The translations under genes and the position numbers were made by a program. The notes below the pieces were generated by a model. It was given only the letters and a program-made list of their open reading frames with translations, did no database searches and had not been told where the DNA came from. A stretch of 33,560 nt of DNA from Patescibacteria group bacterium (lineage in GTDB: Bacteria; Patescibacteriota; Minisyncoccia; Phycocordibacterales; UBA9973), in NCBI GenBank assembly GCA_018813625.1, contig JAHJBA010000057.1, positions 1 to 33,560 of the forward strand. The letters are read 5' to 3'. Positions 29,053 to 30,488 of this stretch are shown one piece after another (the stretch's first letter is position 1; the number at the start of each line of letters is the position of its first letter).

Positions 29053-29081
29053 AGTTTAGCTTATTTCATACCCAAAGTCAA
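29053..29081 (-). promoter_or_regulatory. Sigma70-like promoter of infC-rpmI-rplT
   Basis: Minus strand: TTGACT (29081-29076), 17-nt spacer, TAAACT (29058-29053). The -35 box abuts repeat C4. Confidence 0.5.
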
Positions 29082-29150
29082 TCCTGTAGTGAATTTTGGC
29101 GATGCGCGGGGCGCGTCCCCTGAGGACCTCGCCAAAATCTACTACAGGAT
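29081..29150. repeat. Family C palindromic element, copy C4
   Basis: Minus strand: ATCCTGTAGTAGATTTTGGCGA ... GCGCCCCGCGC ... TCGCCAAAATTCACTACAGGAT. Compensatory arm changes relative to C2/C3. Overlaps the last codons and the stop of the mutase gene. Confidence 0.85.
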
Positions 29151-30488
29151 CAACCGGACTTGGTTAAATATAGTATTTATGCGATTTTCTTCTTTGGCCT
29201 CGCCAATTATGCGTATTACTGGCTCAGTATTGGAGGGTCTAATATGAACCCATGAAGAGTCTGGCCAGTCGAAGCGTAGGCCGTCTAGGGTGTTTGTAGA
29301 TGCCTCTTTGAACTTTGCCTTAAGTTTCTCATAAAGTAGAGTTAGGTCGCCAGAAAAGGTAATTTTATCTTTTTTCATAAAATATTTAGGCAGGCTCTCT
29401 ATAATTTCTGATATATTTTTTTTCTCTCTTGCCATAAGCTCGAGAACAAGAGCAATACCGGCCAGGCTATCTCTGGCTGTATTTATTTTAGAATAAATGA
29501 CCCCACCATTTCCTTCTCCTCCTATGAGTGCGCCTCTTTCAATCATTTTTTCGACTACATTAGGTTCGCCGACTTTTGTTCTAAAAACTTTTTTATTGTA
29601 ATTATTTGCCAAGTCTTCACACATTTTTGAGGTAGACATATTTAAGATCACATCGCTAGGGTTTTTAGATAGAACACTTTTTACGGCGAGTGCTAGTGTA
29701 TATTCTTCATTTAAAATTTCTCCTTTTTCATTTGCGAGTACCAGACGGTCAGCATCGGGGTCCTGGGCGAATCCTATATCTGAATTATTTTTAGAGACTG
29801 CTTCCGCTAGTTGTTTTAAATTTTTTGCCAGTGGTTCTGGTTCGTGCGCGAATTCTCCATTTTGTTCTTCGTTGATTTGAGAAACTTCACAGCCGAGTTC
29901 CTCCAGTAATTTTTTTGTGATTGTACTGCCTGCGCTATTTATAGGATCGTGGGTAACTTTAAATTTTTTGCTTTTGATCAGGTTTACGTCTATATTTTTT
30001 AATACTTCTTTTATGTGTATCTTTTGATAGCTAGAATTGTCGCAAACTTCTTCCTCATTTTCTTTTTGTGAAAAATTTTTTTCATCTTCAATTAAATTTT
30101 TTCTATTTTCCTCGATTTTTTCTATTTCTTTTTGGGTGGCGAATAGACCATTTTTATTTATAAATTTAAGACCGTTATATTCTCTAGGATTATGCGAAGC
30201 AGTTATCATTATTCCTCCACCAAAAGAGAGTTTTCTTGCTAGAAGAAGCATCGATGGAGTAGGGATGATGCCGGCGTATTCTCCCTCTAAGCCTTCTTTT
30301 TTTAATGCTAATTTTATAGCTTTAAATATTTGTGGTCCGGTTTTGCGTGCATCTCGCCCGATTAAAATTTTATGGCCTCCTTGTTCTTTTATCATTTTTG
30401 CAAAAGCACGCCCAAAATCAAAAGCGATTTTCTCGTCTAAATCTTTGCCCCATATTCCTCTATATCCCGAAACATTCAATTTTGGCAT
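29142..30488 (-). CDS. glmM: Phosphoglucosamine mutase / phosphohexomutase family protein
   Basis: ITASHNPREYNGLKF phosphoserine loop; DPDADR; GGEGNGG. The gene symbol is tentative because PGM/PMM cannot be excluded. Confidence 0.8.
   Translation of the reverse strand: MPKLNVSGYRGIWGKDLDEKIAFDFGRAFAKMIKEQGGHKILIGRDARKTGPQIFKAIKLALKKEGLEGEYAGIIPTPSMLLLARKLSFGGGIMITASHNPREYNGLKFINKNGLFATQKEIEKIEENRKNLIEDEKNFSQKENEEEVCDNSSYQKIHIKEVLKNIDVNLIKSKKFKVTHDPINSAGSTITKKLLEELGCEVSQINEEQNGEFAHEPEPLAKNLKQLAEAVSKNNSDIGFAQDPDADRLVLANEKGEILNEEYTLALAVKSVLSKNPSDVILNMSTSKMCEDLANNYNKKVFRTKVGEPNVVEKMIERGALIGGEGNGGVIYSKINTARDSLAGIALVLELMAREKKNISEIIESLPKYFMKKDKITFSGDLTLLYEKLKAKFKEASTNTLDGLRFDWPDSSWVHIRPSNTEPVIRIIGEAKEENRINTIFNQVRLIL

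Follow-up and report, generated by a model that had tools for sequence, protein, structure and literature searches.

We examined a 33,560-nt stretch of DNA (positions 1 to 33,560 of contig JAHJBA010000057.1, assembly GCA_018813625.1), here referred to as the window, for a 68-bp palindrome located between a mutase gene and infC. We denote this palindrome C4, as it is one of four related copies (C1 to C4, family C) in the window. The window has a G+C content of 36% and carries ribosomal-protein genes, secY, adk, infC-rpmI-rplT, smpB and the tmRNA gene, and the names on its closest protein homologues are Minisyncoccia or Nomurabacteria, which are Patescibacteria (candidate phyla radiation, CPR). 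The mutase gene (29142..30488, minus strand), identified from its open reading frame (ORF) and its homologues, encodes a 448-amino acid (aa) member of the PGM/PMM family, and source databases label its close homologues as phosphoglucosamine mutase. The next gene, infC (28518..29024, minus strand), encodes IF3_N and IF3_C and starts with a TTG (29022-29024) that is conserved across all orthologues. C4 itself occupies 29082..29149 (minus strand) and is flanked by two copies of TTGA, an upstream one at 29150..29153 (TCAA on the plus strand) and a downstream one at 29078..29081.

Read on the minus strand, C4 has the layout TCCT-GTAGTAGATTTT-GGCGA-G-[GTCCTCAGGGGAC][GCGCCCCGCGC]-A-TCGCC-AAAATTCACTAC-AGGA. 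Its apex holds a GCGC-CCC-GCGC mini-hairpin (GCGCCCCGCGC, 29104..29114), identified by sequence and fold, and a second hairpin, (GGUCC)UCA(GGGAC) at 29115..29128, predicted by RNA folding. The RNA of C4 folds with -46.7 kcal/mol (z = -7.4), and none of 200 shuffles folded equally well. The two-arm pattern had 3 matches in the window, compared with 0.00 expected from shuffled sequence.

The mutase ORF ends with CGG TTG ATC CTG TAG, in which the TTG codon lies within the TTGA flank, the ATC codon straddles the border between flank and arm, and CTG and TAG are in the palindrome arm. The upstream TTGA now codes for Leu and the first base of Ile, and the current stop TAG (29142..29144) is part of the GTAG that all listed copies of the element contain. 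On the other side, the downstream TTGA forms the first four bases of the infC -35 hexamer, TTGACT (29076..29081), and the -10 hexamer, TAAACT (29053..29058), follows after 17 nt. These direct readings bear out what a sequence-only reading of the window had reported, namely that the element supplies the last residues and the stop of the mutase gene, that the palindrome abuts TTGACT-17-TAAACT (29081-29053) upstream of an infC with a TTG start, and that the apical hairpin is retained as GCGCCCCGCGC.

Empty and filled sites at the mutase-infC junction

We fetched the DNA around orthologous mutases, the identities of which to the window mutase ranged from 79% down to 50%. C4 was absent from the orthologous sites of L121-L127, L133, L135 and L136, and the empty sites represented seven distinct loci (L121, L122/L123, L124/L125/L134, L126/L127, L133, L135 and L136), compared with three filled ones (the window, L128 and L129). 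In the empty loci, the gap between mutase and infC was 36-49 nt with no palindrome, and it contained TTGACT, a 17-nt spacer and TAAACT or TATTAT, with infC starting at TTG. Over the orthologues the -10 hexamer was TAAACT, TATTAT or TAAAAT at equal spacing, and TTGACT was unchanged in 10/10 orthologous loci.

The junction of L122 reads ...aaccaggttCGG TTG ACT TTG GGT CTG AAA TAA gcTAAACTcttc...caaTTG(infC), and that of the window reads ...AACCAAGTCCGG TTGA [68-bp element] TTGA CT TTG GGT ATG AAA TAA GCTAAACTC... When the element and one TTGA were taken out, the window aligned with L122 across the junction (83% over 290 nt). Immediately downstream of C4 there is an untranslated relic of the ancestral mutase tail (29061..29077, minus strand), (TTG A)CT TTG GGT ATG AAA TAA, which corresponds to ...LTLGMK* and differs from the CT TTG GGT CTG AAA TAA of L122 in a single base.

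The protein ends agreed with the DNA. Palindrome-free orthologues had the tails RLTLGLK*, KLTLNP*, RLTLNSQ* and KLTL*, while RLIL* was found in 4 of the 120 best mutase homologues (the window protein, P0014, P0017 and P0020), and the palindrome was present in every RLIL* gene for which DNA was fetched, that is, the window and two others. The comparison of orthologous C-termini, which had been put forward as a check on the element's part in the mutase end, thus came out in its favour.

Family copies at the identical TTGA were seen in L128 and L129 (65% identity), with the old tail and stop remaining downstream, and their reconstructed empty sites align with the empty loci as well. Their flanks are similar to each other, whereas the interiors of their elements differ throughout, in the inner stem as well as in the apical hairpins. 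Since closer relatives of the window are empty and the two interiors are unlike, this points to a single hotspot at which insertion was repeated or turnover took place. A metagenome search for mutase orthologues provided three further informative close loci, and all three were empty. On the other hand, a near-identical strain with an empty allele was not found, as the exact 29-mer of the reconstructed site had 0 matches in the metagenome contigs and an exact-protein look-up of infC returned the filled allele alone.

Judged from these alignments, C4 is an insertion with a target-site duplication (TSD) of 4 bp (TTGA) and did not evolve in place, and its insertion was recent and independent, after the split from the 78-79%-identical relatives. 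It had been suggested that the palindrome is maintained in place between the two genes, but the empty sites show an insertion instead; likewise, the TTGAT flank and the TTGACT box, taken before as separate features, contain the two copies of one TSD, the promoter sequence being ancestral in all empty sites.

Insertion took place at the TTGA of an ancestral ...CGG TTG ACT TTG GGT (A/C)TG AAA TAA..., with duplication of the TTGA. This target was in double use, as it belonged to the Leu-Thr codons near the mutase end and was the start of the infC -35 box, with the -10 box just beyond the old stop; in the relatives, the Leu-Thr codons of the tail still form the -35 hexamer. The overlap of tail and -35 box accounts for the wide conservation of (K/R)LTL at mutase ends, and also for the Leu being TTG and the Thr being ACT in every locus read. 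After insertion, the mutase frame runs from the upstream TTGA into the arm (TTG ATC CTG) and halts at the TAG of the GTAG, so that its tail changed from RLTLGMK* to RLIL*. The downstream TTGA, together with the untouched CT, regenerates TTGACT at the original 17-nt spacing to the -10 box, and the infC promoter sequence is kept whole. The insertion accounts for the RLIL* end, the relic stop downstream and the conserved (K/R)LTL tail, and by itself the C4 locus is an ordinary, if neat, transposon footprint.

Anatomy, spread and target sites of family C

Species-representative genomes were scanned with a pattern that needed just the 12-nt cores of both arms (the family C termini being written as CCNNGTAGTRRATTTT), and at least 120 loci were identified; all counts of copies and sites given below are among the matches listed. 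Almost all matches came from metagenome-assembled genomes (MAGs) of Patescibacteria, including Nomura-, Zambryski-, Wolfe-, Yanofsky-, Taylor-, Nealson- and Gottesmanbacteria, Paceibacterota and others. A phage vector was rejected, as just 2 matches were found in 2.9 million viral contigs. In the literature searched, we found no description of family C, of miniature inverted-repeat transposable elements (MITEs) or palindromic repeats in Patescibacteria, or of the 12-mer cores in a relevant context, and the family is apparently undescribed.

The copies are 61-81 bp in length (median 71.5) and non-coding, except where host ORFs read into them. They consist of CCNN, GTAGT(AG or GA)ATTTT, a variable 5-bp inner stem, usually two small apical hairpins and the mirror arm, and thus have terminal inverted repeats of CCNN-GTAGTRRATTTT and the 5-bp inner stem at both ends. 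GTAG/CTAC was present in every copy, an invariance that is built in, as the scan pattern demanded it. A GYRC-N3-5-GYRC mini-hairpin was found in 50/128 copies and two apical hairpins were predicted in 79/128. In-register direct repeats of at least 4 nt flanked CCNN...NNGG in 91 of 124 copies, compared with about 8 when the flanks were shuffled, and they comprised 35 different sequences, TTGA, TGnTA and TATA among them.

Two of the other three copies in the window are intact. C2 (4459..4524, plus strand) has TTGA at 4455-4458 and 4525-4528 and lies with TTGACA-16-TATTAT upstream of tuf, and C3 (17101..17163, plus strand) has TTGA at 17097-17100 and 17164-17167 and lies with TTGATT-17-TATTCT between secY and adk. 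In both, the downstream TTGA repeat begins the promoter-like -35 box. C1 (~1808..1876, plus strand) is degenerate, with a whole right arm, a decayed left arm and no fold (z = 0).

The inner stem of C4 is TTTTGGCGA/TCGCCAAAA (GGCGA/TCGCC) and that of C2 and C3 is TTTTGATGA/TCATCAAAA (GATGA/TCATC), and the two compensated pairs reported earlier were confirmed as changes on both sides. In case of the outer arm, the CCGGTAG/CTACCGG from which C4 was said to have departed is present in neither copy, since C2 has CCCGTAG/CTACCGG with a CxC mismatch at the position concerned and C3 has CTGGTAG/CTACCGG with a G-C pair there and an adjacent T.G; the change on both sides holds relative to C3 only. Across the family, which was the covariation check proposed for all copies, inner-stem pairs were Watson-Crick in 92-97%, compared with 39-58% after the arms were shuffled between copies. 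Three or four pair types occurred at each position, with 49 distinct 5-mers, of which GGCGA was the second commonest (14 copies) and the GATGA of C2 and C3 was rare (3 copies). The arm differences are therefore a family-wide property, complementarity being kept while the sequence varies among copies and lineages. As C4 was inserted independently, its differences from C2 and C3 are not readable as drift of one sequence. Of the claim that pairing is kept while the sequence drifts, complementarity stands as a property of the family, and the difference of C4 from C2 and C3 need not be local drift.

To describe the targets, we rebuilt the pre-insertion sites of 92 non-redundant copies, and the duplication coincided with a -35 or an (extended) -10 box in 61 of them. 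It was the first four bases of TTGnnn, with TAnnnT 16-18 nt downstream, in 36/92 sites, and of a TTGnnn for which the -10 was not found in 4/92; in 15/92 it was the 5-bp TGnTA of an extended -10 (TGnTAnnnT), in 6/92 the four bases that open a -10 hexamer, and in 31/92 it lay elsewhere. Counted from the duplication, the start of TTGAC had an offset of 0 in 33 sites, of +1 in three and of +2 or +5 in a single site each, and no TTGAC started within the 10 nt that precede the duplication; TGnTAnnnT was at offset 0 in 16 sites. Insertions slightly upstream of the boxes would be equally harmless yet were unseen, which favours a real target preference over pure survivorship.

The smpB promoter gave a second example of filled and empty sites, as its extended -10, TGTTAATAT, is filled in L129 (270-345) and empty in L128 and L126, with repeat copies that differ by one base. 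One 2.6-kb contig, L129, bears both the mutase/infC and the smpB insertions. Just 6 nt separate the L129 smpB promoter from the ATG, which points to an mRNA with little or no leader.

GTAGTAG or GTAGTGA provides tandem stops in one reading frame. The element TAG was entered by 19 ORFs of at least 90 codons (stop to stop), of which 12 were longer than 200 aa. Other genes that are ended by it encode RNase Y (L015), UvrB (L019), TsaD (L056), a SIMPL protein (L063) and a Big_6-domain protein (L109). Element-supplied stops are thus a recurrent side effect of insertion into promoter boxes with which the upstream gene overlaps at its end. An ORF in L105 is similar to the Big_6-domain ORF of L109, the domain scan having covered L109.

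Copies were also found in or beside RNA genes. In L065, a family C hairpin (954-1024) lies within a gene for 23S rRNA (345-4000 by its Rfam LSU match), without a flanking duplication, and takes the place of a short native hairpin found there in L041 and L073. Three further copies are in tRNA-gene fragments (L007 ~3987-4064, L054 ~5571-5646 and L085 ~1365-1440), which retain the D-loop TTAG, the T-loop TTCA and the 3′ end. That essential tRNA genes were hit, which would imply removal at the RNA level, was considered and rejected, as the interrupted sequences are fragments beside intact tRNA genes; they may be old integration scars. In some tandem arrays, adjacent copies share one duplication (L113 2207-2526, L034 1415-1560 and L096 2483-2580). 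In L113 four 81-bp units share CTTG, and in L096 one TCAA is common to a copy of family C and a neighbour of the TCCCGTTAG family, which suggests that the regenerated target was used again.

Origin, mobilisation and possible role of C4

We consider it very probable that C4, with its 68 bp, is a copy of a MITE-like mobile element, palindromic and non-autonomous, that was inserted at TTGA. Family C consists of many short, non-coding copies with terminal inverted repeats, variable TSDs and empty sites with a single TTGA, as in MITEs. Mobilisation would occur in trans, by a putative transposase with a staggered cut of 4-5 bp and a preference for TTGA(C) and TGnTA, the sigma-70 boxes. Such insertions would be tolerated in very compact genomes because the duplication restores the box.

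Some observations weigh against this explanation. An autonomous partner was searched for as lone arms and as 0.6-3.5-kb inverted pairs in the fetched loci, and neither an autonomous element nor a transposase with these termini was found in the ~1 Mb of these loci. In 119/127 copies the arms retain two adjacent non-Watson-Crick positions (AG opposite TC, or the mirror GA opposite CT), at 29091-29092 / 29139-29140 in C4, and the search pattern would have accepted perfect pairing at this tandem step. It is not predicted by a plain model of double-stranded terminal repeats and hints at recognition of the hairpin form. TTGACT-17-TAAACT is a putative working infC promoter, proposed from consensus and conservation. 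Finally, the sequences favour a target preference, but snapshots of this kind cannot fully separate preference from purifying selection.

The candidates for an autonomous element were rejected one after another. All lone arms proved to be copies with one mismatch in the opposite arm. As regards the long inverted CC..GT pairs, the one in L085 encloses an rplS-like gene and the one in L068 encloses homing-endonuclease and peptidase-like ORFs, neither with a transposase. The LAGLIDADG-type homing-endonuclease-like ORF of L068 (2543-3211) lies between inverted CCCGGTTAGTGAAA repeats that are 2.7 kb apart. With respect to the apical hairpins, C2 and C3 have the tandem mismatch in different orientations.

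The strong fold, the complementarity in all intact copies and the adjacent promoter could also be read as a hairpin regulating in cis, or as a symmetric operator, that arose and was selected in place, with arm changes compensated by selection at this site. This reading is very unlikely, however, because the closest relatives have the 36-49-nt junction without a palindrome, TTGA is duplicated, and two relatives have non-homologous interiors at the identical site. The wider family does not favour it either. Copies were oriented 29:25 relative to the adjacent promoter, and the sense-strand ratio of G.T to A.C was 28:18, with no significant excess. Of 111 copies with called ORFs on both sides, 60 were between tandem, 26 between convergent and 25 between divergent genes, and there are also the copies in the 23S rRNA gene and the tRNA-gene fragments. 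Rfam 15 at gathering thresholds matched the tmRNA alone over the window, and with permissive E-values on 28950-29250 the top score was 18 bits, compared with a gathering score of 50. Random orientation, the lack of a G.T excess, the varied gene contexts and the absence of an Rfam match fit a mobile element acting at the DNA level rather than a strand-specific RNA. On the same orientation, G.T:A.C and Rfam results we rejected an RNA-level element as the primary explanation, and no signature of such a role was seen in strand or orientation. The sequencing runs in which this sequence was found were all DNA runs, and their contigs confirm the filled allele. An assembly artefact or a chance palindrome, considered because the window comes from a metagenome, has a negligible probability, given a 3192-nt contig of run X1 that covers 28400-29900 and a 151-nt contig of run X3 that covers the element (29021-29171), both with zero differences, a separately assembled contig in which gene arrangement and gap match those of the window, the filled allele in independent assemblies of the source sample, the family at at least 120 other loci and the 0 matches in shuffles.

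The mismatch step and the GTAG that both strands have at the hairpin foot (with the caveat that the scan demanded GTAG) would rather suit a repetitive extragenic palindrome (REP)/REPIN-like element spread by a single-strand HUH transposase (RAYT or IS200/IS605-type) instead of a DDE enzyme, as though the folded form were recognised. HUH enzymes read hairpins and REPs carry GTAG, and the very wide spread over a deep lineage and the compensatory variation of the stem could be explained in the same way. We nevertheless regard this origin as quite unlikely, because of the variable 4-5-bp direct repeats in most copies and the empty sites, which prove target duplication; to our knowledge, HUH transposition makes no such duplications. 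Moreover, the apical hairpins GGTCCTCAGGGGAC and GCGCCCCGCGC are unrelated and not inverted copies of each other, so there is no REP doublet, and no RAYT-like gene turned up, though no systematic search for one was made.

Compatible with insertion is a later co-option, in which the hairpin terminates or stabilises mutase transcripts and shields the infC promoter from read-through, or the AAAAT tract acts like an UP element. In its favour, a -47 kcal/mol hairpin adjoins both the new stop and the -35 box that follows, the AAAAT tract is ~13-17 nt upstream of that box, 4/4 window copies have a co-directional gene upstream and a promoter-like site on the other side, and the arms and duplications of C4 are intact. 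On the other hand, the stem tail (UUGACUUUGGG) has no U-tract and the terminator scan makes no call of an intrinsic terminator at C4, orientation is random with no G.U bias, and for many copies, such as those in the rRNA gene and between convergent genes, the role is impossible. Co-option is thus possible but rather unlikely; candidates for a present role of the C4 hairpin would be a 3′ stabiliser of the mutase mRNA, a partial terminator or an A-tract upstream of the -35 box.

Related families, known systems and significance

Two other palindromic families were found in the window. The second family (117-121 bp; 6420-6540, 7162-7280 and 28393-28509, with a solo right end near 31580-31592) has the termini TCCCGTTAGAAG...CTTCTAACGGGA and 4-bp duplications, TGAA, TGGA and TGAA(-), that overlap the ATG of the rplC-like MKFILGT, the rplD-like MEAKIYNQKG and the rpmI MKTNKSYT, respectively. 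Its terminal A and the duplicated TG rebuild the ATG, and a Shine-Dalgarno-like GAAGGAAA is stranded ~120 nt upstream; the hairpin might juxtapose the ribosome-binding site and the start codon. The third family (80 nt; 7940-8019, 15303-15382, 17779-17858 and 20200-20279) ends with ...CTGGGA|TG at start codons and occupies entire intergenic gaps of the ribosomal-protein operon. As its arm cores, AAAATTCAGTAC and AAAATTTAGTAC, differ from the core of family C by one mismatch, the families look related. The called starts of the adk-like (17115-17783) and map-like (17824-18537) ORFs fall in C3 and in the 17779-17858 copy, respectively, and the true starts are probably further downstream.

Known bacterial MITEs, such as Correia/NEMIS (Neisseria), RUP (Streptococcus pneumoniae) and ERIC, duplicate TA. 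Like family C, bacterial MITEs are short and non-coding with inverted termini, TSDs and many copies, they are intergenic by promoters and gene ends, give long hairpins in read-through RNA and remodel gene termini. Family C differs in that it duplicates 4-5 bp (TTGA, TGnTA, TATA), in its host range of Patescibacteria, and in that no sequence similarity was found or is expected. In-register landing on sigma-70 -35 or extended -10 boxes is known to us from no described MITE.

The CC(C)N...N(G)GG termini and the 4-5-bp T-N-N-(N)-A duplications are rather similar to those of IS1380 and piggyBac. IS1380 elements have 4-5-bp duplications and CC ends. Family C targets TTGA(C) or TGnTA and not TTAA, and its repeats have no sequence similarity to theirs. 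The duplication of piggyBac is a 4-bp T..A (TTAA, rarely TCAA, TAAA, TTAG and others), its termini are CCC..., and IS1380 serves as its prokaryotic outgroup (PMC10813416). Given a resemblance in ends and duplications alone, membership of family C in this group is a lead only.

With REP/REPIN-RAYT systems, family C has in common an extragenic palindrome with GTAG at the stem foot (in family C a motif demanded by the scan pattern), an imperfection of the stem that is conserved, compensatory variation and a long persistence in a lineage; in contrast to them, its TSDs are verified by empty sites and its apical hairpins form no inverted doublet. Rickettsia palindromic elements (RPEs) are similar as palindromes of a reduced genome that lie within protein and RNA genes or at their ends and alter the products, for which the family C cases are the new C-termini (mutase, RNase Y, UvrB and TsaD) and the hairpin in the 23S rRNA gene. 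RPEs typically form part of a protein, being translated in frame. Family C, unlike RPEs, has clear duplications and promoter-box targets, and it mostly truncates tails because GTAG(TAG/TGA) gives tandem stops in one frame.

More tentatively, and with somewhat less than an even chance in our view, family C, and probably its sister families with TCCCGT ends in the window, may be lineage-wide elements of Patescibacteria with a machinery that recognises sigma-70 boxes (start codons in the sisters), lands harmlessly and recognises its own folded form. If so, the tandem mismatch would mark recognition of a hairpin or cruciform, and MITEs are not known to target and recognise in such a way. An intrinsic preference of the integration machinery for the boxes, if there is one, would be a new kind of 'safe-site' targeting.

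Family C is a widespread mobile family in Patescibacteria, organisms with ~1-Mb genomes and minimal intergenic DNA, and it is a source of annotation errors as well as of real variation in the genomes of its hosts, in C-termini and 23S rRNA. Its homing to promoter boxes across a poorly known phylum is of more interest than the C4 locus. As the repeat is a -35 or -10 box in two thirds of the copies, the family offers an experiment-independent promoter map, at single-base resolution, for uncultivated lineages.

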